Source of the DNA: a bacterium
GTDB taxonomy: Bacteria > Babelota > Babeliae > Babelales > RVW-14
Assembly: GCA_043822925.1 (NCBI GenBank)
Contig: JBDRBF010000026.1
Location: forward strand, 1-16,965
Reading direction: 5' to 3'
DNA length: 16,965 nt
Both the position numbers and the translations under genes were made by a program. Under the pieces are notes generated by a model, which saw nothing but the letters and a program-made list of their open reading frames with translations, was not told the DNA's origin and searched no databases. Shown piece after piece: positions 4,122 through 16,356 of the stretch. Position 1 is the first letter of the stretch. Each line of letters starts with the position of its first letter.

Positions 4122-5924
4122 TTACCAGGTAGCGGGATACAGAAATTTAAAATATTTCCATTCTTCTTTATATGCTGGCGGGAATGATATGCTAGCATTG
4201 AATTCTTTATTTGTATCGCCAAGTAACGTTTGAAGCGTCTTGCGAGTTATATTTGTTGTTATTCTGAGCTCTGGAACATCAATAGTAAATTCTTCCCCTT
4301 CAAGTTCTCCACCGTAAAATTGCTTTATTTCCGATTCTACTTTTGCGTTATTGTCTAAAGTTTTTATTGCTTCGGCGAGCTTTTTTGTATATTCGTAGGT
4401 ATATTCTCCTGCGTTGATACCAGGCTTTGGGGCTATTATAATATCTTTATTGGTAACCCATTTTGCTTTCACTGAAAAATCTAATGCTGCTTCTCTGCCA
4501 AAGCGAATGGTAAAAATGGTAGGGCTATTAGGGGCGAGTTGGTTTTTTTTTGATGCATAAATATATCCGTTTCGGCAGGCCCATACATGATGGTAGTAGG
4601 CGCCACCTGTGCGCGTACTACCGCTGCCGCTGGGATTGGGAGTACGTATTTCGTCCGCTTCTCGACATCCACATCCAAAGCAGAATGAGCCATGTTTACA
4701 AGGGGAATTATGCATGATGAGGCAATTGTTGTTCTCATTGTGGTAATCTATGTTGCAATTAGGTTCAGGGCACCGTTGTGTCGTTAAAAAGGTAATTTGT
4801 TCGTCTTTTTCTATATCAGATAGTTTTGGTTTGTTATCTGTTTTATTGCATGCTCCTTGGTGCCAGGGTTCCTGGCAATCTGGACAATATTTTTTATGAC
4901 AGCTTGGGCATTCATATTTGGTGTTACGCGAGATTTCGTGAAAGCCCCGTCCGTTGCCCAAGCTGTAAAATTCTTTACAGTTTGGGGTTGGGCAGCGTCT
5001 AAAATTTTTGTCAGTACTTTTGGCTAAAAGCTTAAGTAAGTTTATTCGTTCTGTTTTTGTTTTGCTGCTATCATCAAGTTCATCAGTTACCACTTTGTTT
5101 AAGTCATCATCTGAAATTGGTTTTTTGCATTGGAGGCATTGTAATTCGTTACGATTTCTTTCTTTGAGAGTCCTTGAAACAGAAGGATCGTAGCAATAAA
5201 TACAAATTTGATTGTGTCCACATGATAGCGAGGGAAAGTCAGATTTAAGTGTTAAGTAGTAGCAGGATCCGCAGTTGTCTGTTTCTAGTTTGGGTAAAAG
5301 TTTAAGGGCGTCTATTCTTTCTTCTTTTGTTTTTTCTTTTCCTCCTTGTATTACTATTTCTTCTTTGCCTTGTCGCATTTGTATATTTGGGAGTCCTCCA
5401 ACAACCCCTTTAGTAATTATTTTCCCCCAATCGTCATCATCAATGAGTTTGTGGCATCCTGGGCATTTTAAGAGCCCTCGGTTAGTAGAATCAAGAGCCT
5501 TCCAAACAGGCCCTTCAACGCCGTTGTATTCATTAATGCAATAAAATTTTTTAGATTCAAGTGCATTGCAGCCACATGCTAATTCAGGAAACATATTTCC
5601 AGGTTTTTGTATCTTGCAAATCGCACAAGTTTTGGGCGCATTTTTCTTTCGTTCTTTTTCTTCCCGGGCTATTCTTTGTTCTTCTTGTTCGCGAGCTATT
5701 TTTTGTTCTTCTTGTTCGCGTTCTATTCTTTCTTCAGCAGTTTCTTTTGGTTTATTTAGATTGTCTTTGACTTCTGCCATCGTAATACTGAGCTCAATTA
5801 ATTTAGCTTTAAGTATGCCTAGGCTTTGCTTTATGTTGTCTATTTTTTTATCTAATGCTATTCCTGAAATGTTGTATACGTTAAAAATACAGATTAGTGT
5901 TAAAATATATAAAATTTTGCGCAT
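4122..5924 (-). CDS. Exported RBR (RING-IBR-RING) E3 ubiquitin ligase-like zinc-finger protein, 600 aa
   Basis: Signal-like N-terminus and coiled coil. Two tandem RING-like units (CAIC..CGC..CPGC; CGSC..CGH..CIYC..CLQC), an IBR-like unit (CPTPNC..CPSC..CPDC..WH..C) and a RING2-like unit (CPEPNC..NCLIMH..C..FCFGC..HHVWAC). Confidence 0.8.
   Translation of the reverse strand: MRKILYILTLICIFNVYNISGIALDKKIDNIKQSLGILKAKLIELSITMAEVKDNLNKPKETAEERIEREQEEQKIAREQEEQRIAREEKERKKNAPKTCAICKIQKPGNMFPELACGCNALESKKFYCINEYNGVEGPVWKALDSTNRGLLKCPGCHKLIDDDDWGKIITKGVVGGLPNIQMRQGKEEIVIQGGKEKTKEERIDALKLLPKLETDNCGSCYYLTLKSDFPSLSCGHNQICIYCYDPSVSRTLKERNRNELQCLQCKKPISDDDLNKVVTDELDDSSKTKTERINLLKLLAKSTDKNFRRCPTPNCKEFYSLGNGRGFHEISRNTKYECPSCHKKYCPDCQEPWHQGACNKTDNKPKLSDIEKDEQITFLTTQRCPEPNCNIDYHNENNNCLIMHNSPCKHGSFCFGCGCREADEIRTPNPSGSGSTRTGGAYYHHVWACRNGYIYASKKNQLAPNSPTIFTIRFGREAALDFSVKAKWVTNKDIIIAPKPGINAGEYTYEYTKKLAEAIKTLDNNAKVESEIKQFYGGELEGEEFTIDVPELRITTNITRKTLQTLLGDTNKEFNASISFPPAYKEEWKYFKFLYPATW
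5668..5730 (-). repeat. 27-bp coding tandem repeat, about 2.3 copies, encoding REQEEQ(K/R)IA
   Basis: gctattctttgttcttcttgttcgcga / gctattttttgttcttcttgttcgcgt / tctattctt. Confidence 0.9.
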
Positions 5925-6112: not shown

Positions 6113-6805
6113 GTGAAAACTATGGTGATTACGATTGATGGGCCAGCCGCTAGTGGCAAAAGTACGGTAGCGCAAATACTTGCGCGTGAACTGGGCAGTT
6201 ATTATTTAAATACGGGGTTATTGTACCGGGCGGTTGCGTATATTATAGCGCGTCGTCATGAAAATCCTGATGGGTCTGGGTGTGATTGTTGCATGGGTGA
6301 TATTAAAATAGAAGCACAAGATTTGGACTTTATTGGGCGCATTATGTATGAGTATCGTGATGGTAAGCCGTATGTAATGTACAAAAAAGAGGATATCACG
6401 CAGCATTTATATGATGCACAAATTGGAGATCTTGCGTCTGTTATTAGCGCGACAGCTTTAGTGCGTAACGCGCTTTTGCCGTTGCAGCGAGATATTGCAC
6501 AAAAATATGATATTGTTGCTGATGGCCGAGACTGTGGCACGGTTATATTTCCTGATGCCAGATTTAAATTTTATTTAACTGCTTCTTTGGATGTGCGCGC
6601 AAGCAGGTTGCTTGCAGGGGTGCGATATAATGGAGTGAATGCATCGCTTGACGATATTAAACAGGATTTGGAGATTCGTGATCACCGTGATACGCATCGT
6701 GAAGTTGCGCCGCTTAAAAAACCTGATAACGCAATTTTTGTTGATAATTCAGATATGACTATCGAAGAAACGGTCGCGTATTTTTTACGTATTATTCGTG
6801 AGTGA
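6113..6805 (+). CDS. cmk: Cytidylate kinase (start GTG 6113 or ATG 6122)
   Basis: Motifs ITIDGPAASGKST, NTGLLYRA, DGRDCGTVIFPDA, FYLTAS and RDHRDTHREVAPL. Confidence 0.96.
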   Translation: MKTMVITIDGPAASGKSTVAQILARELGSYYLNTGLLYRAVAYIIARRHENPDGSGCDCCMGDIKIEAQDLDFIGRIMYEYRDGKPYVMYKKEDITQHLYDAQIGDLASVISATALVRNALLPLQRDIAQKYDIVADGRDCGTVIFPDARFKFYLTASLDVRASRLLAGVRYNGVNASLDDIKQDLEIRDHRDTHREVAPLKKPDNAIFVDNSDMTIEETVAYFLRIIRE

Positions 6806-6969
6806 AATGCGTAGGTAAATTATCGGCTCTGAAAAAAATAAAATTTTTAAACGCTTGATTTTGATCTAACGAGATCCGTACGCTTACTGGTATATAAAAT
6901 AAAAGATCTTATGAGTGCGGCTCAGGGTGAGCGCGCGTGATCTTGTTTTTTTACCAGAAGGAGACGGTG

Positions 6970-8337
6970 ATGGTGTTTATGCGTAAAAAATATTTTTTTC
7001 TTCTATTTTTTGGACTACTTGCTTTTGGGCGGGTTTGGTGCACAGAAAACGTACTTCAAGATAAAGTTATAGCGAAAACAAAAGCAGCGTGGTCAGTACT
7101 TGTGTATATCGCCGCAGATAATAATCTTGCACCGTATGCATTATATAACATTAATGATATGTCTGCGGGTATGGTTTCGACAAATGGCTGTAACGTGTTA
7201 GTTCAATGGGATAAGCCGCGTGAAAATAAAACGTGGCGTTATCAAATAACTCCGGGTAGTAAAATTGATGCAGGATCTATATCTTCAGAAATGGGATATA
7301 ATACGGTAAATGAGTTGGTTGCATCTATGAAGTGGGTTGTTACGAATTATCCTGCAGACAAATATGCGCTTATTTTGTGGGATCATGGCAGTGGGATAGC
7401 AGATTTTATGCCGGGGTCAAGAGCGTTTACGCGGGGTATTTTATACGATGATTCACAGCGTACTTGCTTGACGAATCAAGGGCTAACGACGGCACTTGCG
7501 CAAATTAAGGCATTAATTGGGCATAATCTTGATATTCTTGCGACAGATGCGTGTTTAATGGCTATGGCTGAAGTTGCATATCAAGTGAAAGATTCGGTGG
7601 ATCTATTTATTGGTTCTCAGGAAACAATTCCAGGTAACGGGTATTCATATTCTAAGTTTATAAAACCGCTCTCAACTAATCCTGCTGGAACGACGCCATT
7701 ACAGCTTGCGCAATATATAATTAATGGGTATGCGAATTTTTATACTAATACTGAGCCAACGTCAGATTTTACGTTGTCGAGTATAGATGTGACAAAGATA
7801 AGTTCAGTTAAGACAAGCATTGATCTGTTTGTTGCTGCTGTAAATGCGTGTAGTAAGTTGGATGCAAAAGCAACTAAGAATATGATTGTTGCTGCGCGTA
7901 AAGCGACAATTTCTTTTGCTATGCCTGAATACGTAGATTTGTATTCGTTTTATGCAAATGTCTTAAAACAGTTAAAAACGAAGTCTCCAAAATCGGCGCT
8001 TATTTTAGATCAGTATAATAAATATTTGAGACCAAAACCAAAAAAACCAAAAAAGCCAGCGTCAAAGCCAAAGCCAAAGCCAAAACCAGCGCCAAAACCA
8101 ACAGTAACATCAGTTAAAGCATATAAAGCGGCGCTTGAAGATTTAAAGCTTGCGGCACAAAATGGAATAAACCAAGTCTTAAACGTTGTGGCGCAAAATT
8201 CGACCGGGCCTGTATATTCAGGGGTTGGTGGCGTTTCGATTTATTATCCAAGATTTGGATCTATTCATAGTTCTTATCCTAAAACATTGTTTGCTAAGAA
8301 CACAGCCTGGAGTAAGTTTATTTTGGCATATCGATAA
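6970..8337 (+). CDS. Exported clostripain-family (peptidase C11) cysteine protease
   Basis: Motifs LVYIAADNNL, catalytic His in WDHGSG, catalytic Cys in DACLM, GSQE and GVSIYYP, plus a signal peptide. An aaggag RBS at 6958-6963 favours ATG 6970 over the track's 6937. Confidence 0.92.
   Translation: MVFMRKKYFFLLFFGLLAFGRVWCTENVLQDKVIAKTKAAWSVLVYIAADNNLAPYALYNINDMSAGMVSTNGCNVLVQWDKPRENKTWRYQITPGSKIDAGSISSEMGYNTVNELVASMKWVVTNYPADKYALILWDHGSGIADFMPGSRAFTRGILYDDSQRTCLTNQGLTTALAQIKALIGHNLDILATDACLMAMAEVAYQVKDSVDLFIGSQETIPGNGYSYSKFIKPLSTNPAGTTPLQLAQYIINGYANFYTNTEPTSDFTLSSIDVTKISSVKTSIDLFVAAVNACSKLDAKATKNMIVAARKATISFAMPEYVDLYSFYANVLKQLKTKSPKSALILDQYNKYLRPKPKKPKKPASKPKPKPKPAPKPTVTSVKAYKAALEDLKLAAQNGINQVLNVVAQNSTGPVYSGVGGVSIYYPRFGSIHSSYPKTLFAKNTAWSKFILAYR
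8032..8100 (+). repeat. Lys/Pro low-complexity coding repeat in clostripain
   Basis: ccaaaa/aagcca units encoding PKPKKPKKPASKPKPKPKPAPKP. Confidence 0.85.
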
Positions 8338-8386
8338 AAACTAAGCACTAAAAAAGCTTAAAAAAGAGACGTAAAACTTATCGAAA

Positions 8387-8422
8387 ACAAAGAGGGGCTC
8401 GGCCAGCCGAGCCCCTCTTTGT
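8387..8422. terminator. Perfect inverted repeat, probable bidirectional terminator between clostripain and the phoH/HEPN transcription direction
   Basis: acaaagaggggctcggc / gccgagcccctctttgt is a 17-bp perfect inverted repeat with T-rich tails on both strands. Confidence 0.85.
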
Positions 8423-8634
8423 AATGTTGTGAGATTAAAAAATATTGCGAGTTTATAATTTTTCGGTTGTTAACTTCGCAAGTTCGCTGCGTTCTGATTT
8501 TTCTAGAAACGCTGTCGCAACAATAGCATTATCTTTGAGCTTGTCAGATGTCACGGTCAGGCCGTTGCTGGTAAAATCAAGATAGGGCGAATCGATTTGG
8601 TACGGGTCTCCGGCCAGAATAACTTTGGTGCCTT
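8390..8634 (-). repeat. Direct repeat copy 1: last 59 codons of phoH, stop, 3' UTR and terminator (startless phoH fragment)
   Basis: 245 bp matching 9457-9702 with 7 substitutions and 1 indel. The phoH stop equivalent is at 8453-8455. Confidence 0.97.
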
Positions 8635-9010
8635 ATTTTATAACTTTGTTTTTAACGAAATTAGAAATTTTATTTGCCAAATCAATTGCTTCAATAAGAT
8701 CCTTTTGATTCACATGAAAAGAATCATTTGGGTATCGTGAATTGAAGCCATAAGGATCTAAGTATTGGCATGCTTTTTGAAGTAAAGCGAACTCCACATC
8801 AAGCTTTGTACAGCCATCCAAAAGCATGCTTAAATCGTGGGTCTTTGGAATTGCCTTTCCAAGAAAAACAAAAAATGTTTTAAGCGATTTTTCTGCACAT
8901 TGATGAGTAAGGTAGATTGCAGGATCGATTGTTTCGTCATCACATATTGATTTTGTAGCCAATTTCAAATCAGCCGATGCTTTTTGCTCCCAATCTTTAA
9001 TCCCTGGCAT
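8633..9010 (-). CDS. HEPN domain protein (toxin-type partner of an MNT-HEPN pair)
   Basis: Motifs W..KA.ADL, HQCAEKSLK, KTHDL and SRYP. Its start overlaps the end of the upstream MNT gene. Confidence 0.92.
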   Translation of the reverse strand: MPGIKDWEQKASADLKLATKSICDDETIDPAIYLTHQCAEKSLKTFFVFLGKAIPKTHDLSMLLDGCTKLDVEFALLQKACQYLDPYGFNSRYPNDSFHVNQKDLIEAIDLANKISNFVKNKVIK

Positions 9011-9317
9011 AAATAACCTTGCCTTTGGTTTTTATCTCATAGGTACTTGAGCTTGGATCTTGAGCATATTTATCAAATTCTTCTTTGGTAAAGACAATCA
9101 CATTTTTGGGAATTTTTAATCCTAGTAATACCTCAAAGGCTGTGTATCCCCTTTTGATAACTCTTTCGTTGGAAGATTCTACTATAATTAATATATCAAA
9201 TGTACTATCTTCGTTCTGGGTACCCAAAGCATAGTCGCCATATAAATAAATTTGCAATGGTTTGTAAGCTTTAACAAGCCGTTTTATAGCTTCATCAATA
9301 GTAGTTTTTGTTACCAT
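8997..9317 (-). CDS. Minimal nucleotidyltransferase (MNT) domain protein with a degenerate catalytic motif
   Basis: P..IYLYGxYA.G...EDSxxD pattern, C-terminal G.VIY, 106 aa, gaggg RBS, paired with HEPN. Confidence 0.9.
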   Translation of the reverse strand: MVTKTTIDEAIKRLVKAYKPLQIYLYGDYALGTQNEDSTFDILIIVESSNERVIKRGYTAFEVLLGLKIPKNVIVFTKEEFDKYAQDPSSSTYEIKTKGKVIYARD

Positions 9318-9456
9318 AAATCCCTCATTTTTTTATACGAAATAAACACTTTATGTCATAAGGTTACTTGCACTTGATTTATGCCCAAAGATGCCAGATT
9401 TCTGCATTAAAAGAAAGAGGGTTGAGGATTCTAAAATATTATAGGTTTAGTTAAGT

Positions 9457-9702
9457 AAGAGGGGCTCGGCCAGCCGAAGCCCCTCTTTGTAATGTTGTGA
9501 GATTAAAAAATATTGCGAGTTTATAATTTTTCGGTTGTTAACTTCGCAAGTTCGCTGCGTTCTGATTTTTCTAGAAACGCTGTCGCAACGATAGAATTAT
9601 CTTTAAGCTTGTCAGATGTTACGGTAAGCCCGTTACTGGTAAAATCAAGATAGGGCGAATCGATTTGGTACGGGTCTCCGGCCAGAATAACTTTGGTGCC
9701 TT
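9457..9702 (-). repeat. Direct repeat copy 2: the functional phoH 3' end plus a truncated, bulged terminator (9457-9487)
   Basis: 246 bp matching 8390-8634. The hairpin has an extra A (gccgaagcccc) and lacks the outer stem bases and tail. Confidence 0.97.
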
Positions 9703-11029
9703 CGCCCGCTCGGCTGACGAGTGTTTTTACTTCATGGGGGGTTAAGTTTTGGACTTCGTCTATAAACACAAACTGGTTTGGTATTGAGCGGCCACGCATG
9801 TATGTGATTGCTTCTAGGCTCAAGATCCCGCGTTGTTGGAGTTGTTCTATGCGTTTGTCTACGTTCATAAATTGAGGCTTGTGGTGATCATCTTTGTTCT
9901 TGTTTCGGTCTCGATCTCGTTGCCCATGTTGTTCTCCACCTCTATGATCATGTTTTTTTGAGCGGTGACGTGAGCGTTTTCTTTCTTCGTGCATGCCGGG
10001 AAAATCTCCATGTTCATGGTCTATTTGGCTTAAGATAAAATCAAGATTGTCTTGCACCGGTTGCATCCAGTAGTGTAATTTTGCTTGCAGGTCGCCAGGT
10101 AGGTAGCCAATATCGGCGCCAAGCGCGACAACCGGGCGAGCTACTAAGAATTTGCGATATGCTTTTTCTATCATTACTTTATATAAACCGGCCAGCAGTG
10201 TTAAAAAAGTTTTACCGGTTCCGGCTGGTCCAAGTAATGTTACCAGTTTTATGCTGTCATCCATGAGTAAATCAAGCGTCATAAGTTGTTGAATGTTTTT
10301 TGCGTGAAAACTATTCATGACGGTGATTGGGGGAATGTCTTTAAAATTTTGGCCGCCTAGATAGCGTACAAGGCGTGTGTTTTCAGGATTATTTTCACTT
10401 TCAAGAATTATAAATTCGTTTAAGCATAAGTCTTGGGGGTCTACGATTGAGCCAATTTTTTTGACTGACAGAGTCTTCATGTCTTGTGCTGGCAAAGCCA
10501 GGCGTCTCCAGCCTTTAAAGAAGTCGTCATAACTGACCAGGCCCTTGGTATAATCTTCCGTGTGTATGCCCATAACGTCTGCTTTGACGCGCATGTCTAT
10601 ATCTTTGGTGACCAGCGTGACGGTGCAGTTTTGTTGCATGAGGTCTTTGGCTGTTTGGATAATTAAGTTGTCTTTAGCGGCCAGCAGGTCTCCAGAAAAA
10701 TCGACATTTGTTGGTGTTGGAAATACTTTTATTATGGTTTCTTGTCCGTTAATTTGTACCGGTACCCCCTGTAATAAACTGCCTTTCTGGCGTAGTTCGT
10801 CTAGTTTACGAATAGATTCACGGGCGTTTCGGCTGCGTTCATCTGTGCCGCGTTTAAAAGAGTCCAGCTCTTCAAGCACAACAAACGGTATGCCAATAAC
10901 GACCCCTTTAAAGCTAAAAAAAGCATGGGGGTCGTGTAACAAAATATTTGTGTCTAAAATAAATATACGGTTAAGCCGTATTGGACAGTTTTGGTCTTTA
11001 TTTGTATCTAGGTCTGATTTGTTTGCCAT
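9521..11029 (-). CDS. phoH: PIN-PhoH fusion (PhoH2-like) ATPase
   Basis: N-terminal PIN domain (ILDTNILL, VLEELD, DNLI, VTKD). PhoH motifs GPAGTGKT, IGYLPG, YMRGRS, DEVQN and GDPYQID. aaaggag RBS. Confidence 0.95.
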   Translation of the reverse strand: MANKSDLDTNKDQNCPIRLNRIFILDTNILLHDPHAFFSFKGVVIGIPFVVLEELDSFKRGTDERSRNARESIRKLDELRQKGSLLQGVPVQINGQETIIKVFPTPTNVDFSGDLLAAKDNLIIQTAKDLMQQNCTVTLVTKDIDMRVKADVMGIHTEDYTKGLVSYDDFFKGWRRLALPAQDMKTLSVKKIGSIVDPQDLCLNEFIILESENNPENTRLVRYLGGQNFKDIPPITVMNSFHAKNIQQLMTLDLLMDDSIKLVTLLGPAGTGKTFLTLLAGLYKVMIEKAYRKFLVARPVVALGADIGYLPGDLQAKLHYWMQPVQDNLDFILSQIDHEHGDFPGMHEERKRSRHRSKKHDHRGGEQHGQRDRDRNKNKDDHHKPQFMNVDKRIEQLQQRGILSLEAITYMRGRSIPNQFVFIDEVQNLTPHEVKTLVSRAGEGTKVILAGDPYQIDSPYLDFTSNGLTVTSDKLKDNSIVATAFLEKSERSELAKLTTEKL

Positions 11030-11281: not shown

Positions 11282-13000
11282 ATGGAAAAGCATGATAATT
11301 TGTACAAAATTCGTCATTCTGCAGCACATTTGCTTGCGCAGGCTGTTTTAGAATTATTTCCAAAAACTTTGACGACGATTGGACCTGTAACGGAAAATGG
11401 TTTTTTTTATGACTTTTTACCCGAGAAGAATTTTAAAGACCAAGATCTGGAACTTATAGAAAACAAAATGCACGAACTTGCCAAGAAAAATTATAAGATT
11501 ACCGGCAAGCAAATTTCAAAAAAAGAAGCGCTTGAATTTTTTAAAGATAATAAATTTAAGCTTGAGTTAATTAACGGGATACAAGACGAAACGGTCGGTG
11601 TGTTCTCTCAGGGTGATTTTCATGATTTATGTCAGGGGGATCACGCTCAGGCAACCGGAGAAATAAAGTTTTTTAAGCTTATGCATATTTCTGGTGCGTA
11701 TTGGCGTGCTGACCGCGAAGGCCAAGCTCTGCAACGTATTACTGGCGTTGCATTTGAAACACAAAAAGATTTTGATGAGTATCTTAAACATCTTGAAGAT
11801 ATTGCAGCGTATGATCATCGTAAACTAGGGCAACAATTAAACTTGTTTTCGTTTCATGATGAAGCGCCGGGTATGGCGTTTTTTCATAATAAAGGTCAAA
11901 TTTTATATAATAATTTAATTAACTTTACGCGTTCTTTACAAGAAGATTTATATCAAGAAGTGCGTACACCACTGATTATGAGCGAAGGTCTTTGGAAAAC
12001 GTCTGGACACTATGATAATTATAAAGACATGATGTATTTTGCCTCGACCGCTGATGGCAGCGTAAATTGCGTCAAGCCTATGAACTGTCCTGGCGGCGTT
12101 CTCATGTATAAAGAAGGTTTGCATTCATATCGTGATTTGCCGATGCGCATTGCTGAATTTGGTATGGTTCATAGATTTGAGCTTTCTGGTGTGCGTCACG
12201 GCTTGTTGCGCGTGCGACAATTTACACAAGACGATGCGCACATTTATTGTACTCCTGAGCAAACTGAACAAGAAGTTATTGGGTGCTTGGATTTAATTGA
12301 AAAAGTATATAAACCGTTTGGGTTTAATAAAATATCTATGGCAGTCTCGACAAAACCAGAAAAAGCTATGGGTACTGACGATATGTGGGAGCGCGCAACA
12401 GACGCTTTATGCAAAGCTCTCGAAAAACGAGAGATCCCGTATATTATACAGGCGGGCGAAGGCGCATTTTATGGTCCTAAAATAGAAGTGCGTGTTGAAG
12501 ATGCAATGGGACGTGAATGGCAAATGGGTACGGTTCAGGTAGATTTTAACTTGCCGGCAAGTTTTGAACTTGAGTATGTAGATGCTGATCAATCTCGTAA
12601 AACTCCCGTCATGATACATCGGGCAATTATGGGTTCGATCGAACGTTTTATGGGAATTATTATAGAGCACTTTAAGGGTAATTTGCCGTTTTGGATTGCT
12701 CCTGAGCAAGTGCGTATACTTAAGATTACTGATGAGCAGCAAAATTATGCACGTACTTTACAGGCTCGTTTGAAAAAAGCAGGAATACGTGTGACGCTTG
12801 ATGAATCTTCAGATCAAATTTCAGCGCAAATTAAGCGGGCACAGATGGCTAAGATTCCGTGGATGCTGGTTGTTGGCAAAAAAGAACAGGAACAAAATAC
12901 GATTACGTTACGTACGCTTGATGGTAAGCAGCAATTTGGTTTAACGCTGGATGTTATTCTCGAGCAAGCAGAGCAGTTGATTCGATCGGTTAATTCATGA
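11282..13000 (+). CDS. thrS: Threonyl-tRNA synthetase, short form starting at the editing domain (no TGS domain)
   Basis: Motifs RHSAAH, DLCQGDH, SGAYW, DHRKLG, KPMNCP, RVRQFTQDDAH, GEGAFYGPK and HRAIMGSIERF, plus the anticodon-binding C-terminus. Confidence 0.98.
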   Translation: MEKHDNLYKIRHSAAHLLAQAVLELFPKTLTTIGPVTENGFFYDFLPEKNFKDQDLELIENKMHELAKKNYKITGKQISKKEALEFFKDNKFKLELINGIQDETVGVFSQGDFHDLCQGDHAQATGEIKFFKLMHISGAYWRADREGQALQRITGVAFETQKDFDEYLKHLEDIAAYDHRKLGQQLNLFSFHDEAPGMAFFHNKGQILYNNLINFTRSLQEDLYQEVRTPLIMSEGLWKTSGHYDNYKDMMYFASTADGSVNCVKPMNCPGGVLMYKEGLHSYRDLPMRIAEFGMVHRFELSGVRHGLLRVRQFTQDDAHIYCTPEQTEQEVIGCLDLIEKVYKPFGFNKISMAVSTKPEKAMGTDDMWERATDALCKALEKREIPYIIQAGEGAFYGPKIEVRVEDAMGREWQMGTVQVDFNLPASFELEYVDADQSRKTPVMIHRAIMGSIERFMGIIIEHFKGNLPFWIAPEQVRILKITDEQQNYARTLQARLKKAGIRVTLDESSDQISAQIKRAQMAKIPWMLVVGKKEQEQNTITLRTLDGKQQFGLTLDVILEQAEQLIRSVNS

Positions 13001-14436
13001 ATAAGTATCCGTTGCCACGTATAATCACGCGAGCAGATAATAATGTGCTCAAGAGTTTGCAATCAGTTTCGTATGAACAACTTGAAGAAGAGACACAATC
13101 GTTTGTGCGGCAATCAGCTTTGCGTTTAAAAGCGGGGCATTGGTTGGATAATGTTAAGCCGGGTGCAAAATTTTTATCGGGCAAAGTTGGTGATTTTAAG
13201 ATTTTGGAAGAAGCTAATGCAAATTCGCTTTTTACGCCGTTTGTGGAAAAGCATATTTGTCCTCCAGGCTCACGAGTGTTTGTTATAGGCGATATTCATG
13301 GAGATATCGCCTCTTTAGCTTCTATTGTTGATTATTTGCATCATCAAGGCATTCTCGATGATGAATATCACATCGTTGAAGACGATTTTTATATGGTATT
13401 TTTGGGTGATTATGTTGACCGGTTGCCATATACGGTCGAAGTTATGATGTTAATATTTCACCTGCATAGCCAAAATATCGGCAAAGTTTTTGTGCTGCGT
13501 GGGAATCATGAATTTTCTGCATGTAATAGATATTTTTATGAAAAATTGCAGAAGCATGAGGCTGATGGTGGTGAGAGTATTATGGGGCAAGAGTCTTTCT
13601 TGGGCGAACTTGCATATCGATTTGATGTTTATTATTATCCCGATCTTTTATATTGGTATGATTATTTGCCGCTTGCCTGTTATTTGGGAACTGAGAATGA
13701 AAAAACGGGGCAAGTTGACGTTATTCAGTTTAGTCATGCTGGTATAGAAATGGGATTTAATCCTGGGCCGTTACTTGCTGATCCAGAAATTAATTATCAA
13801 AAATTGGTGCAGCTTGACCGGTATGGTGCTTTGCAAAAAGCTCTGGTAAGTGACCAATTAAAATCTGTCCGAGCAAGTATTTCCAATACGTTTGAGTATT
13901 TAACTAAAAATATAGAAAAAACGGCTTTTGGGCCTGTTTTAAATTCATACGTGAATACGGGTATTATTGAGCTTAAAGATCCCATGAGCCCTATACAGTT
14001 ACTTTTAGGCACTCAATGGAATGGCTTTTTAACAGAAGAAAATGATTTAGGTTTTGCGACATCTCTTTCTGGCTGCCCATTACTTTTTGGCAGGATTCTT
14101 ACTGAGTACTTCTTTCAGAATTTAGATGGCGCACCCAATGCTAAGATAGTTTCTATGATCCGTGGGCATCAGCACCGTAACGATCTTGATAAAAATATTG
14201 GCCTCGATAATAGGTTACTTGATTTATTACGTGAGCGCCGTGGCTGTGTGCGGCAATGGGACGGGTTATTGTATACGATGGGTGATAGCGGCATGAGGAC
14301 GGGATATCAATCGTTCTTATTACTTACGCTTGCTGAGCAAACAGAAAAATGGATGGTTGAGCATTATTCACGCTCGCCACATGAAGAACATTTTTCGGTA
14401 GAAACGTTTAAAATGTTTGCCCGTTTATCTGGTTAA
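12997..14436 (+). CDS. PPP-family (calcineurin-like) metallophosphoesterase / Ser-Thr phosphatase
   Basis: Motifs GDIHG, GDYVDR, LRGNHE, SHAG and IRGHQ. ATGA overlap with the thrS stop. Confidence 0.9.
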   Translation: MNKYPLPRIITRADNNVLKSLQSVSYEQLEEETQSFVRQSALRLKAGHWLDNVKPGAKFLSGKVGDFKILEEANANSLFTPFVEKHICPPGSRVFVIGDIHGDIASLASIVDYLHHQGILDDEYHIVEDDFYMVFLGDYVDRLPYTVEVMMLIFHLHSQNIGKVFVLRGNHEFSACNRYFYEKLQKHEADGGESIMGQESFLGELAYRFDVYYYPDLLYWYDYLPLACYLGTENEKTGQVDVIQFSHAGIEMGFNPGPLLADPEINYQKLVQLDRYGALQKALVSDQLKSVRASISNTFEYLTKNIEKTAFGPVLNSYVNTGIIELKDPMSPIQLLLGTQWNGFLTEENDLGFATSLSGCPLLFGRILTEYFFQNLDGAPNAKIVSMIRGHQHRNDLDKNIGLDNRLLDLLRERRGCVRQWDGLLYTMGDSGMRTGYQSFLLLTLAEQTEKWMVEHYSRSPHEEHFSVETFKMFARLSG

Positions 14437-14492: not shown

Positions 14493-14813
14493 ATGATTTC
14501 ACAAGAAATAATTTAAGAGGCGGTACGTCGCTTAGTCAGAGCGTATGACCCACTAGAAGTATATCTTTATGGTACTTACGCATGGGGAACTCCTAACGAA
14601 GATGATGATCTCAATTTGTTGCTCATTATTGAATCGTCGGATCAAAAAGTCTATGAAAGAGGCCATAAGGCATTCGATACTTTATTGGGATTAAAAATAC
14701 CTACGAATGTAATTGTTTTTACAAAACAAGAATTTGATACGTTCTCGCAAGACATAACATCATTAACCTATGAGGTAAAGAGTAAGGGAAAGATACTTTA
14801 TGCCAGGAGTTAA
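14493..14813 (+). pseudogene. MNT paralogue with a nonsense codon at codon 8
   Basis: ATG 14493 follows an aagga RBS and reads MISQEII*EAVRRLV..., with TAA at 14514-14516. It is colinear without gaps with the 8997-9317 MNT (about 62/106 identical by hand count). The track ORF 14616..14813 is its 3' part. Confidence 0.9.
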
Positions 14814-14841
14814 TGATTGGGTCAAAGTATTCTTTTCATAA
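14800..14841 (+). pseudogene. Truncated HEPN remnant
   Basis: MPGVNDWVKVFFS* versus intact MPGIKDWEQKAS..., with the same 14-nt overlap with the MNT end. Confidence 0.8.
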
Positions 14842-14970: not shown

Positions 14971-16356
14971 ATGAGAATCAAAAAAACTTCGTTTATCCTG
15001 AGCTCTTTTGCAATAGGTTTGGTTTGTGCTTTATTTGTGTATAGCAGCGTTTTCTCACTTAAAAGCAAGCTCGATAAATATATTAAAGCATATGTAGATT
15101 TGGAGAAATTTAGCGGTTCTGTTTTAGTCGCCAAAGATGGCAAGATAGTGTTGTGCAAAGGTTATGGCATGGCAAACTACGAACTTGATGTTCCCAATAC
15201 CCCTGAAACAATATTTAGATTAGGGTCAGTAACAAAACAGTTTACTGCAATGGCAATAATGCAGCTGCAAGAAAAGGGTTTATTAAGTGTTGAAGATACG
15301 CTATCAAAGTATATATCTGATTATCCCAATGGTGAGAATATAACCATTCACCAGTTACTAGCGCATACATCTGGGATTCCTGAAATTCTAAAGTTTCCAG
15401 AGTCCAAAAAAAAGAAAATAAAGCCACAGACACTTGAACAACTTATAGAAATATTCAAAAACAAACCGTTAGATTTTGAGCCAGGAGAAAAACATAGTTA
15501 CAGTAATTCAGGGTATATTTTATTAACGTACATTATTGAAAAAGTATCTGGGAAAAAATACGAAACTTTTTTGAAAGAAAATATTTTTGATCCGATTGGT
15601 ATGAAGAATACGGGATGTGATCAATTCAAGGCTATTATTAAAAATAGAGCATCTGGTTATACGCGGGATGGTGACCTGCTTGTTAATGCTGACTACATTG
15701 ACATGTCTTTTCCTGCTGGAGCTGGAGTTTTATATTCAAAACTTGAAGATTTGTTTCTTTGGAATCAGGCTCTGAACTCAGAAAAGTTATTATCACAAAA
15801 ATCACGTGATGCCATGTTTACGCCTCATGTAATCGTAAACACAAATGACCCAAAATCTTTGAGCTATGGATACGGCTTGCGTATGGGTAAAAAGCACAAT
15901 CGAAATGTTATTTTGCATACTGGCGGAATAGATGGCTTTGCTTCAATCTTTTGCAGATATCCTGATGATAACGTTTGTATAATTATTTTAAGTAATTTCG
16001 AGTTTTCGAACAAATCAAAAATAGCAGACGATCTTGCGGCGATTGTTTTTGGAGAAAAATATGAAATACCCAAAAAACGAATTGCTATCGATATAAATCC
16101 TGAAATTTATGATCACTATGTTGGCAAATATAAACTTAAAGAAGATCTTATTATTACTGTAATTAAAGAGAATAATAGACTTTTCGATCTACCAAAAGGA
16201 CAAAAGAAATACGAGCTATTGCCTGAAACAGAATCAGATTTTTTTCATAAGTTTGTTGATTCAAAAATATCTTTCGTCAAAGACAAAGATGGCAACGTTA
16301 CAAGATTAATAGTACGTGAAGATGGAAAAGATCAAGTTGCTGAAAAAATAGAATAA
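14971..16356 (+). CDS. Exported serine hydrolase, class C beta-lactamase/PBP-like, with a C-terminal DUF3471-like domain
   Basis: SxxK (SVTK), LLAHTSG, YxN (YSN) and HTGG motifs, a hydrophobic N-terminus, and a C-terminal YDHYVGKY...F beta domain. Confidence 0.93.
   Translation: MRIKKTSFILSSFAIGLVCALFVYSSVFSLKSKLDKYIKAYVDLEKFSGSVLVAKDGKIVLCKGYGMANYELDVPNTPETIFRLGSVTKQFTAMAIMQLQEKGLLSVEDTLSKYISDYPNGENITIHQLLAHTSGIPEILKFPESKKKKIKPQTLEQLIEIFKNKPLDFEPGEKHSYSNSGYILLTYIIEKVSGKKYETFLKENIFDPIGMKNTGCDQFKAIIKNRASGYTRDGDLLVNADYIDMSFPAGAGVLYSKLEDLFLWNQALNSEKLLSQKSRDAMFTPHVIVNTNDPKSLSYGYGLRMGKKHNRNVILHTGGIDGFASIFCRYPDDNVCIIILSNFEFSNKSKIADDLAAIVFGEKYEIPKKRIAIDINPEIYDHYVGKYKLKEDLIITVIKENNRLFDLPKGQKKYELLPETESDFFHKFVDSKISFVKDKDGNVTRLIVREDGKDQVAEKIE

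Follow-up and report, generated by a model that had tools for sequence, protein, structure and literature searches.

The stretch of DNA analysed here (the window, 16,965 nt) is a chromosome segment of an amoeba-associated Babeliales (TM6/Dependentiae) bacterium. Within it, an MNT-HEPN gene pair sits behind phoH2, between two direct copies of the 3' end of that gene. We identified the following features, given by position, strand and content:

6937-8337, plus strand: C11 (clostripain-family) peptidase gene, the downstream flank, convergent on phoH (Pfam Peptidase_C11, E = 6.7e-52)
8381-8422, no strand assigned: native terminator common to the convergent phoH and C11 genes, with a 16-bp perfect stem at 8387-8422 (-31.7 kcal/mol)
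8390-8634, no strand assigned: repeat copy A, the displaced copy, 245 nt
8453-8634, minus strand: phoH' fragment, which takes in AA of codon 443 and all of codons 444-502, up to and including the stop, an open frame without a start codon
8522-8567, no strand assigned: 46-nt substitution patch containing all 7 substitutions, with its partner at 9590-9635 in copy B
8633-9010, minus strand: HEPN, 125 aa, presumed toxin (Pfam HEPN, E = 2.7e-21)
8997-9317, minus strand: MNT, minimal nucleotidyltransferase, 106 aa, presumed antitoxin (Pfam Polbeta/NTP_transf_2, E ~7e-8)
9318-9456, minus strand: cassette leader, 139 nt, 30% GC, whose upstream edge is junction J1
9457-9487, minus strand: copy B hairpin, with a 13-bp stem and a 1-nt bulge (-23.2 kcal/mol), followed by ACUUAAC and without a U tract
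9457-9702, no strand assigned: repeat copy B, 246 nt, running from phoH2 codon 443 (positions 2-3) through the stop and 3' UTR to the truncated hairpin
9521-11029, minus strand: phoH2, intact, 502 aa, PIN plus PhoH ATPase (Pfam PIN_4, E = 5e-29; PhoH, E = 4.8e-43)
14493-14841, plus strand: second MNT-HEPN cassette, decayed (from tblastn, translation and alignment)

In copy A, two bases of codon 443 (its last two) precede codons 444-502 and the stop, followed by the 3' UTR and the hairpin; the last 59 codons of phoH2 likewise fall within copy B. Of 246 aligned columns, 238 are identical between the two copies, the rest being 7 substitutions and a single-base indel located in a hairpin arm; the longest exact stretch common to both is ~105 nt, and the spacing from start to start is 1067/1068 nt. 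Between them lie 822 nt of unique DNA (8635-9456) that hold the leader, MNT and HEPN only, and this insert fills the duplication joint exactly, with 0 extra bases on either side. Both junctions, J1 at 9456/9457 and J2 at 8634/8635, are resolved to the base. The window has no other long repeat (its second-longest repeat has 38 nt at 71%), and the repeat with its hairpin occurs twice in the window and 0 times in the three relatives' loci (L001-L003). The architecture laid out in the initial annotation was therefore correct in each part: direct repeats of ~245 bp at these positions, made of the last 59 phoH codons plus terminator and recurring with a period of ~1068 bp, enclose ~822 bp of unique DNA with Pfam-matched MNT and HEPN genes, and the window holds no recombinase or transposase, none being found among its 12 large ORFs with Pfam and NCBIfam. 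A search for tRNA genes (ARAGORN) found none, the only terminal inverted repeat on the insert is a 10-nt AT-rich match near the ends, at chance level, and comparison of the 822-nt insert to plasmids and phages (blastn) gave 0 matches.

The flanks belong to the core chromosome: the synteny thrS<-phoH->...<-cmk is kept in three Babeliales relatives, with mutS nearby. The PhoH2 proteins of these three syntenic loci are 57-58% identical to the protein encoded here, too distant for a DNA-level alignment of the empty site, and the NCBIfam PhoH2 match of the 502-aa protein is below the cut-off. In 3 of 3 relatives phoH is directly followed by other genes, and both the cassette and the phoH 3' duplication are found in 0 of 3. 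The comparison of phoH-clostripain synteny that had been suggested at the outset gave a negative answer, as phoH and the C11 gene are adjacent in 0 of 3 relatives and this neighbourhood is not conserved. Because the nearest PhoH2 is 69% identical and those of the three loci 57-58%, the polarity of the event is read from the duplication itself.

The two cassette genes are on the same strand, MNT first, with ORFs that overlap by 14 nt. Their Pfam matches are above the gathering cut-offs, so that the pair has the make-up of a two-gene MNT-HEPN module (PF01909/PF18765 with PF05168), for which we infer a toxin-antitoxin function from sequence. The AlphaFold model of MNT (pLDDT 95.1) has as its top Foldseek matches the MNT antitoxins 2rff, 8xeo, 8xeh, 1no5 and 7bxo, and the motif of the MNT family is G27-D28 ... 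[T/S]39-x-D41-x-L43. The HEPN fold was assigned from Pfam and PDB profile matches only (1wol, E = 5e-9; 1ufb, E = 1.5e-8), and the closest solved relatives are uncharacterised structural-genomics proteins. HEPN ends at the usual place for its family, 65 of 85 sequences ending within 2 alignment columns. R92...H99 is present with RX6H spacing; R92-Y-P is invariant in the family, as are H36 and H58, whereas the H99 position (n = 85) holds His in 11 sequences, Tyr in 39, Arg in 14 and Phe in 9. PADLOC gave weak matches of MNT to the candidate family PDC-S09 (E = 2.6e-7) and 0 matches for HEPN.

The organisation of the pair, MNT first and then HEPN in overlapping ORFs, is that of the type VII HepT/MntA systems of Shewanella and Aphanizomenon (PDB 5yep, 7bxo, 7aer), and the predicted MNT model superposes on MntA/MNT antitoxins. 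The HEPN protein, in contrast to HepT, falls in PF05168 (relatives 1wol, 1ufb and TM0613), and HepT/DUF86 was not reported by the Pfam scan. The MntA-type catalytic motif is GSx10DxD, and the HEPN RNase motif is Rx4-6H. GSx10DxD is absent from MNT, these catalytic motifs are not conserved in the family, and the NCBIfam MntA_antitoxin score of MNT is 20.2 bits vs. a cut-off of 60. Given these departures in motif and score, neutralisation by AMPylation should not be assumed. As for the toxin-antitoxin pair named in the initial annotation, the MNT-HEPN module is present but deviates from the catalytic motifs of proven HepT/MntA.

GC content is 33-34% in the cassette vs. 38.6% in the window and 42.9% in phoH2. 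This offset of the cassette is modest, and another gene of the window, with a beta-lactamase fold, has just as low a GC content (33.3%).

In the leader, inspection by eye shows a candidate promoter of sigma-70-like type, ATGACA (9360-9355) and TATAAA (9338-9333) separated by 16 nt, and a ribosome-binding site, GAGGG (9326-9322), 4 nt upstream of the MNT start codon. The promoter pair was missed by the consensus scan, which accepts a -10 box only with T as its sixth base. That scan for promoters and terminators also left the phoH hairpin unflagged, and shuffled sequence gave counts at least as high; hairpins were therefore assessed by folding. The leader gave no Pfam signal in 6-frame pieces, and a search for integrase remnants, of very low power with four frame pieces of 30-43 aa, gave no match below E 0.2.

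The two hairpins differ in a way that locates one breakpoint. The native terminator is followed on the phoH-sense strand by UUUUCG, and its folding energy has z = -6.6 and -8.65 on the two strands. Its stem and U tract extend 3+6 nt past the repeat boundary, from which it follows that copy A runs uninterrupted into the ancestral flank. The copy B hairpin is 3 stem pairs short relative to the native terminator, is bulged and has no U tract, which identifies J1 as a breakpoint inside the terminator. Plausibly this hairpin is a weakened terminator that lets phoH2 transcription read through into the cassette, and the cassette would then be transcribed by this read-through or from its own weak promoter, in either case ending at the native terminator. 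An Rfam scan of 8000-10000 returned sub-threshold hairpin matches only (best 27 bits vs. a gathering score of 229), which we regard as noise.

At the other end, J2 lies exactly at the native HEPN stop codon, with a 2-nt AA overlap (microhomology). The HEPN stop TAA (8635-8633) takes the place of phoH2 codon 443 (GAA), in frame with the phoH' fragment. As judged from their sequences, both junctions look like illegitimate joints. For a random joint of this kind, a breakpoint exactly at the HEPN stop is surprisingly neat.

The differences between the copies are not spread evenly. Outside the 46-nt patch, the flanks of 67 nt and ~130 nt are identical except for the hairpin indel, and the clustering of the 7 substitutions is significant both over 245 nt (P = 1.4e-4) and over the coding part (P = 1e-3). 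Of these substitutions, 6 are synonymous third-position changes and 1 is S479A, the one amino-acid difference between the phoH' fragment and copy B; the third-position excess is also significant (P = 1.2e-3 to 6.9e-3), and residue 479 is variable among 40 homologues. With 6 synonymous changes among the 7 and a total span of 46 nt, the substitutions suggest a patch of recombination and not drift, and the synonymous bias fits an arm that was once part of a working phoH allele. A protein database search for phoH2 alleles from sister strains that might have donated the patch found none above 69% identity.

We compared the cassette proteins and PhoH2 to the same database of 5.8 billion proteins. 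HEPN has 84 non-self homologues, the best at 86% identity, and MNT has 54, the best at 88%, vs. 69% for the best non-self match of PhoH2. Because the best matches of the cassette proteins are so much closer than that of the neighbouring core protein, the cassette family looks horizontally mobile, circulating among Babeliales. By eye, 25 of the 54 non-self MNT matches share their longest-contig size with a HEPN match, which indicates co-occurrence on contigs, whereas 0 of the contig sizes of the 84 HEPN homologues recur among the 119 non-self PhoH2 matches listed. Among the matches listed, the linkage of the cassette to phoH thus looks unique to this contig.

The second cassette is a degraded member of this family: MNT2 has 59% protein identity to MNT and is interrupted by TAA in frame at codon 8, all that is left of HEPN2 is MPGVNDW with 6 unrelated codons, and the codon-position counts are 35/20/61. 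It has no flanking direct repeat of at least 24 nt in the window. The initial annotation had asked whether other MNT-HEPN copies are flanked by duplicated gene ends; at the one copy examined (14493-14841) no such repeat of at least 24 nt was found, and a long duplication is therefore not a regular property of the cassette family here.

We give about even credence to the reading that the locus records a real and fairly recent insertion-duplication ('insertion with long target duplication') in a Babeliales chromosome, to which no element-encoded recombinase would have contributed. The 822-bp cassette of leader, MNT and HEPN, from a family circulating among Babeliales, would have been joined in behind phoH2, and 245 bp of the target, which run from phoH2 codon 443 into the terminator stem and include most of it, would have been duplicated simultaneously. 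The outcome is an intact phoH2, with the displaced last 59 codons and the native terminator beyond the far side of the cassette. Such a structure would result if a circular DNA bearing a phoH arm underwent one reciprocal crossover with the chromosome (Campbell-type insertion-duplication); equivalently, host replication or repair may have made the insertion and its long target duplication in one step. The two edges of the insert would be illegitimate joints. Later, a short recombination tract from a diverged, functional phoH allele may have created the 46-nt synonymous patch. The upstream hairpin would have lost its U tract and 3 stem pairs, and this loss would make transcription of the cassette possible from its own weak promoter or by phoH2 read-through. 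The direct repeats would permit loss of the cassette by homologous recombination, and if HEPN and MNT act as a toxin-antitoxin pair, that loss would be selected against. Single-crossover integration of a ~1.07-kb circle had been proposed for this locus from the start; its topology holds exactly (245-bp arm plus 822-bp cassette), but the ends of the insert are arbitrary breakpoints, and the 'homology arm' may simply be the target duplication left by a one-off insertion.

Insertion with long target duplication was reportedly described by Nobusato et al. in 2000 for restriction-modification gene complexes. According to the published accounts of restriction-modification addiction modules, such insertions occur with long target duplications of 46 to ~420 bp and without mobility genes (PMC2853133; PMC3874152). 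As in the cases described by Furuta, Abe & Kobayashi (2010, PMC2853133), a small addiction-type module lies here between long target-derived direct repeats, transposase and integrase genes are lacking, the insert has a higher AT content than the genome, and the repeats may extend over a gene's 3' end; excision and amplification via the repeats are hypothesised in that work. Applying by analogy the definition of Furuta et al. 2010, which was written for R+M, we find a complete module in an insert of <20 kb (822 nt), a direct target duplication of >30 bp (245/246 nt) and, in the window and L001-L003, no linked mobility gene and no multicopy repeat. That definition also asks for an empty site in a related genome where the repeat is single-copy; the three relatives have neither cassette nor duplication, but at 57-58% PhoH2 identity their DNA is too diverged to align. 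Unlike in the restriction-modification insertions, the module is an MNT-HEPN pair, which has no DNA-cutting activity, so that the suggestion of double-strand breakage driven by the module, as put forward in PMC2853133, does not apply; the host is also of the obligate-intracellular type (Babeliales) and not a naturally competent free-living species. The topology has a further counterpart in an E. coli lacZ-end system, in which circular DNA with a gene-end fragment entered by single crossover: PCR showed duplications in 56 of 60 Lac- clones, and those of the 14 clones sequenced measured 109-950 bp (PMC3240628). There, as here, the gene stays intact if its 3' end is included, and host recombination suffices; that system is described as a laboratory construct with designed homology, whereas any circle and arm behind the present locus are hypothetical.

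Two other classes of element were compared with the locus. Like the toxin-antitoxin cassettes of chromosomal integrons, this is a promoter-poor, pair-only cassette of ~1 kb among chromosomal genes; unlike them, it has no attC-like imperfect inverted repeat at its end, the HEPN stop abutting the phoH repeat with zero intervening sequence, the window encodes no IntI integrase, and 245 bp of target are duplicated. An insertion sequence or transposon is likewise not indicated, there being no transposase, only the 10-nt AT-rich inverted match, and a duplication of 245 nt.

Among the alternatives, it is unlikely, though worth weighing, that the locus is a decayed integrase island that had entered the 3' end of phoH2 and brought along a substitute for that end, in the manner of e14 and phage 21 at icd, and that an internal deletion left only MNT-HEPN, the pair being kept because deletion of a toxin-antitoxin pair is selected against. 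Integration of e14 and phage 21 into icd is said to have been described by Hill et al. in 1989. In the e14/icd-icdC case, gene-end copies with mostly synonymous differences are presented as the signature of integrase elements that replace a 3' end (PMC13626634). The resemblance to that pattern is close: the intact gene reaches into the element, whose far end carries the displaced C-terminal pseudogene, the copies differ mostly at synonymous positions (6 of 7, with the seventh at a variable residue), and excision would yield a chimeric, functional gene. The 67-nt perfect identity adjoins J2, where the crossover core would be expected, and copy B, which would be the element-borne arm, stops arbitrarily inside the terminator and is the imperfect one of the two. 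However, e14 is described as a 15-kb element with a site-specific integrase, whereas the element here is 822 bp, and no recombinase gene is found in those 822 nt or in the rest of the window; nor do the 822 nt contain an excisionase or any other island gene or fragment. Here, unlike in the e14/icd case as described, the non-coding 3' UTR and terminator are also duplicated, and these 63 nt are identical bar one indel, which would be unexpected for an arm captured long ago elsewhere. With the HEPN stop abutting the repeat, any arm-type integrase sites would have to lie in coding DNA, and two events would be required where one suffices.

That the cassette is instead an autonomous mobile circle of ~1,068 bp, made of the toxin-antitoxin pair and a phoH arm, which excises, passes between related cells, re-integrates homologously and is kept by addiction, seems to us improbable. 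Its topology fits, repeats of this length and similarity would suffice for RecA-type recombination, members of the cassette family seem to be transferred from one Babeliales genome to another, and a virus-like cycle has been hypothesised for repeat-flanked restriction-modification units, for which, in the account of PMC2853133, amplification is experimental and release is not. On the other hand, the second cassette copy has neither a duplicated gene end nor a phoH arm, and the ends of the arm are arbitrary and cut the terminator stem, unlike those of a conserved, reused arm. The HEPN-phoH linkage looks unique to this contig (by eye, 0 shared among the matches listed), a 1-kb circle would lack any replication or transfer function, and the toxin activity is presumed. 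We are equally doubtful of the wider form of this idea, a recombinase-free selfish element with a homology arm that spreads among Babeliales sharing an amoeba host and leaves the host gene intact.

There is also a small chance that the arrangement is an assembly artefact, in which co-occurring strains, or an empty-site chromosome and separate cassette DNA, were threaded together via the common phoH 3' sequence, the two copies then being two strain alleles. The window is apparently a whole metagenome-type contig, its proteins being assigned in the protein database to one contig of 16,965 nt, and the 46-nt synonymous patch resembles allelic strain variation. A graph assembler, however, needs both junctions in real DNA, and J2, where the HEPN stop meets phoH codon 443, implies a phoH fragment behind HEPN. 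With a longest exact shared stretch of ~105 nt the path need not be ambiguous, k-mers in late assembly steps being commonly longer than this, and the alternative arrangements need more rearrangements than the assembled one.

Very improbable is a two-step origin, in which a 245-bp tandem duplication of the phoH 3' end came first and the cassette was inserted between the copies later: tandem duplications by slippage at hairpins are common and one duplication boundary does lie in a strong hairpin, but the later insertion would have had to strike one phosphodiester bond exactly, and a cassette-free duplication is found in 0 of 3 relatives, which are distant. We also rejected a model in which everything between phoH codon 443 and the HEPN stop was duplicated in tandem, as it predicts two cassettes and one is present.

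On the insertion-duplication reading, the pattern is not new in kind, since recombinase-free long target duplication has been described, mainly for restriction-modification genes in the accounts cited above; a literature phrase search at the level of listings found no description of this architecture for a protein toxin-antitoxin pair. The movement of chromosomal toxin-antitoxin pairs without a transposon, phage or integron is poorly documented, and the locus offers a clean, fully delimited example of 822 nt and two genes. Because the HEPN and MNT proteins do not cut DNA, the case argues that this mode of insertion is a process of host replication or recombination, and is not provoked by a nuclease of the module. 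Should the homology-arm element nevertheless be real, toxin-antitoxin modules would themselves be mobile elements that use host recombination only, as in Kobayashi's hypothesis for restriction-modification genes, and their loss would be resisted through post-segregational toxicity. The locus also documents the colonisation of the 3' end of a core gene by such a module in a reduced, host-associated genome, and because the sister cassette close by is already in decay, gain and loss are both visible in the window.

The initial annotation had described a duplicated phoH end, and both its coordinates and its description were upheld by the repeat search, the alignment, the ORFs and the content of copy A. 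No other repeat comparable to the two copies was found in the full 16,965-nt window. The copies are spaced 1067/1068 nt apart and, in pairwise alignment, differ by 7 substitutions and 1 single-base indel, which falls in a hairpin arm. The insert between them consists of two overlapping minus-strand ORFs and a leader. The features are:

8390-8634: copy A, 245 nt (repeat search and pairwise alignment); final 2 bases of phoH2 codon 443, codons 444-502, stop, 3' UTR and hairpin
8635-9456: insert, 822 nt
8633-9010, minus strand: HEPN, presumed toxin, 125 aa (Pfam HEPN, E 2.7e-21)
8997-9317, minus strand: MNT, presumed antitoxin, 106 aa (Pfam Polbeta/NTP_transf_2)
9318-9456, minus strand: leader, 139 nt, preceding the MNT/HEPN ORFs
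9457-9702: copy B, 246 nt (repeat search and pairwise alignment)
9521-11029, minus strand: phoH2, the repeated gene (PhoH2, PIN+PhoH, 502 aa)
14493-14841, plus strand: second MNT-HEPN cassette, between metallophosphoesterase and beta-lactamase-fold genes

The ATPase domain of PhoH2 contains a ~55-aa insert rich in His, Arg, Lys and Asp (residues ~336-392, window ~9850-10020); the Pfam PhoH alignment runs over residues 242-492, yet covers just 192 of 205 model positions.

On the phoH-sense strand, copy A forms a hairpin whose 16-bp stem has no mismatch (-31.7 kcal/mol) and leads into UUUUCG. Its final 3 pairs and the U tract fall outside the repeat boundary, so that copy A is continuous with the ancestral flank; its hairpin is the native terminator, common to phoH and the convergent C11 gene. 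The copy B hairpin is shortened (13 pairs, a 1-nt bulge, -23.2 kcal/mol, then ACUUAAC), which identifies the leader/copy B edge (9456/9457) as a breakpoint within the terminator. The other junction (8634/8635) coincides with the HEPN stop TAA, which stands in the place of phoH2 codon 443 (GAA), the final AA being common to both. Because the closest HEPN homologue has the same terminal residue and 65 of 85 family members have their C-terminus no more than two alignment columns away, this stop is native, and the insert thus comes without a 3' UTR. Beyond a 10-nt AT-rich match, the insert has no terminal inverted repeats, and the leader contains no recognisable gene fragment. Inspection of the leader by eye revealed a candidate promoter (ATGACA-16 nt-TATAAA) and a GAGGG ribosome-binding site; a consensus scan did not report the ATGACA/TATAAA pair. 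From these elements, the weakened copy B hairpin and the native terminator, we infer that transcription of the cassette could begin at its own promoter or enter from phoH2 by read-through over the weakened hairpin, and that its transcripts would cross phoH', the displaced phoH2 fragment in copy A, and stop at the native terminator. The HEPN stop (8633-8635) and the 59 codons of the phoH' fragment share a reading frame, and read-through of this stop would yield a HEPN-PhoH' fusion; such an in-frame arrangement arises by accident in 1 of 3 cases and may be meaningless.

The assembled structure is the product of a single reciprocal crossover between the chromosome and a circle made of the 245-bp phoH end and the 822-bp cassette, and matches in topology the single-crossover circle of the initial annotation. 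We rank first a recombinase-free insertion-duplication, to which we assign an about even chance. This covers two variants jointly: a circle carrying the phoH arm and the cassette would undergo one crossover with the chromosome, or, in a single step, template switching or repair would exit the chromosome at the hairpin and re-enter 245 nt upstream. The assembled structure fits both alike. The restriction-modification literature names such a product 'insertion with long target duplication' (PMC2853133). Furuta et al. catalogue such insertions for every type of restriction-modification module, the duplications measuring 46 to ~420 bp; mobility genes are lacking, some cases overlap gene 3' ends, and most are in competent species; an invasion-amplification-release cycle is hypothesised, of which experiment supports amplification only (PMC2853133). 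Mruk and Kobayashi state this mode for restriction-modification systems and mention carriage of toxin-antitoxin systems on known mobile elements (PMC3874152). When circular DNA bearing a fragment of the lacZ end was used in E. coli, PCR showed single-crossover duplications in 56 of 60 Lac- clones; in the 14 clones sequenced they were 109-950 bp long (PMC3240628).

Comparison of the two copies shows that all 7 substitutions fall in one 46-nt stretch (8522-8567, codons 465-480), between flanks of 67 nt and ~130 nt that are identical except for the hairpin indel. Six are third-position synonymous changes, and the remaining one, S479A, falls at a freely variable position of the family (S 19, P 6, A 5, R 4 and others, n = 40). 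Both the clustering (P = 1.4e-4 over 245 nt, P = 1e-3 over the coding part) and the third-position excess (P = 1.2e-3 to 6.9e-3) were assessed by simulation and exact tests; neither would be predicted if a pseudogene copy had decayed neutrally. The patch resembles a short segment of a phoH allele that had diverged yet still worked; this segment would have come in with the arm or have been imported later into one copy. As every model considered here needs a mosaic, the patch cannot separate them. An integrase island, bearing a replacement phoH end and since decayed, would account for the synonymous patch as well as the imperfection of the proximal copy, as in e14/icd-icdC (PMC13626634); however, such an island requires an extra deletion and leaves unexplained both the near-identical 3' UTR and hairpin and the absence of room for arm sites, and we consider it unlikely. 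Domain scans of 12 window ORFs detected no recombinase or transposase domain, in agreement with the initial annotation, and a tRNA search of the window found none. The active self-mobilising circle proposed there has the right topology, but there is no sign of a circle, of arm reuse or of phoH linkage in other cassettes, which makes it improbable. We place at a similarly low level a strain-chimeric assembly; against it, both junction sequences must be present in real DNA, and the longest exact stretch common to the copies is just ~105 nt. A bare tandem duplication followed by insertion exactly at the joint demands an unlikely coincidence and is the least probable of all.

In the second, paralogous cassette, MNT2 shares 59% amino acid identity with MNT, but its frame is interrupted by a TAA at codon 8; of HEPN2, only MPGVNDW is left, with unrelated sequence behind it, and the 14-nt gene overlap is retained. 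Such a decayed cassette and an intact one in the same window indicate that the genome gains and loses these modules. The repeat search found no direct repeat of at least 24 nt flanking it, which shows that these modules are not always inserted with a long duplication.

Domain scans identified mutS, an IBR-domain protein, cmk, a C11 peptidase, the cassette, phoH2, thrS, a metallophosphoesterase, a beta-lactamase-fold protein and a GNAT protein in the window. A genome search with PhoH2 yielded 3 loci, all from TM6/Babeliales MAGs (57-58% identity); in each, thrS and phoH are divergently oriented, and cmk faces phoH from further downstream. The phoH-cmk interval is variable:

Window, 6113-9520: C11 peptidase and cassette
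Relative L001, 11393-13087: UCH deubiquitinase (11450-13036, minus strand)
Relative L002, 11438-13705: metallophosphoesterase and unknown ORF
Relative L003, 5661-5719: no gene

The phoH-clostripain synteny is thus not shared, as none of the three gaps holds a C11 gene. MNT-HEPN is absent from the site in all three (tblastn), as is a duplicated phoH end, so the simple local duplication considered in the initial annotation has no counterpart in these relatives, which are all too distant for a base-level empty site; the evidence base is a single locus on one contig. Given the conserved thrS-phoH...cmk order and the differing gap content, the cassette sits in conserved core chromosome at a spot variable across Babeliales. 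The IBR protein (4122-5924, minus strand, 600 aa; eukaryote-type RBR E3-ligase domain) has three 27-nt tandem repeats at 5648-5728, and it and the L001 UCH both resemble mimics of the ubiquitin system, a trait typical of bacteria living inside eukaryotic cells. The beta-lactamase-fold/PBP-like protein (14971-16356, plus strand) adjoins the AAC(6')-like GNAT protein (16373-16963, plus strand); both score far under all NCBIfam resistance cut-offs (e.g., 100 vs. 415 bits and 112 vs. 280 bits), and a resistance-gene label is not warranted.

HEPN has 84 non-self homologues (top identities 86, 80, 79 and 79%), those bearing names being from TM6/Babeliales, and MNT has 54 (top identity 88%), of which 25 pair with a HEPN match by longest-contig size (compared by eye), indicating that the two genes travel together. 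The top non-self PhoH2 among the matches listed from the same protein database reaches 69% identity, and HEPN-bearing contigs showed no overlap, by size and by eye, with those of the 119 non-self PhoH2 matches listed. The pair is thus more conserved between contigs than the core ATPase PhoH2, which suggests horizontal movement of the cassette family within Babeliales, although the short contigs may stem from otherwise unsampled close relatives. GC content is 33-34% in the cassette, 38.6% in the window and 42.9% in phoH2, and one further window gene is as AT-rich. The predicted MNT structure (pLDDT 95.1) matches MNT antitoxin structures, including HEPN-MNT complexes, and the HEPN profile matches 1wol, 1ufb and TM0613. 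HepT/MntA systems are marked by GSx10DxD in MntA and Rx4-6H in HEPN, catalytic-type residues that the Babeliales family, in contrast, does not conserve: its MNT motif is G-D...[T/S]-x-D, with no GSx10DxD and no D-x-D; the Rx4-6H histidine (His99) is present here but in only 11 of 85 family sequences; and the invariant HEPN residues are H36, Q37, E40, K41, K44 and H58. With an NCBIfam MntA score of 20.2 bits vs. a cut-off of 60, membership in this type VII family is not supported by these comparisons, and the pair may work otherwise than the AMPylating systems. We therefore infer toxin-antitoxin behaviour of the predicted pair from family and gene arrangement.

Literature searches joining toxin-antitoxin systems with target duplication brought up restriction-modification papers and reviews; outside subscription journals and supplements, none of the titles and abstracts listed reports that a protein toxin-antitoxin pair had entered a genome in this manner, and no paper was found that joins Babeliales with HEPN. 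Addiction-type modules that lack a mobility gene are known to insert with long target duplications; the occurrence of this with an MNT-HEPN pair in Babeliales is new. The cassette resembles the restriction-modification modules in being of addiction type and lacking a mobility gene, whereas those modules cut DNA and MNT-HEPN does not. Since the same insertion mode is seen here with a module that does not cut DNA, the case bears on the mechanism proposed for it.
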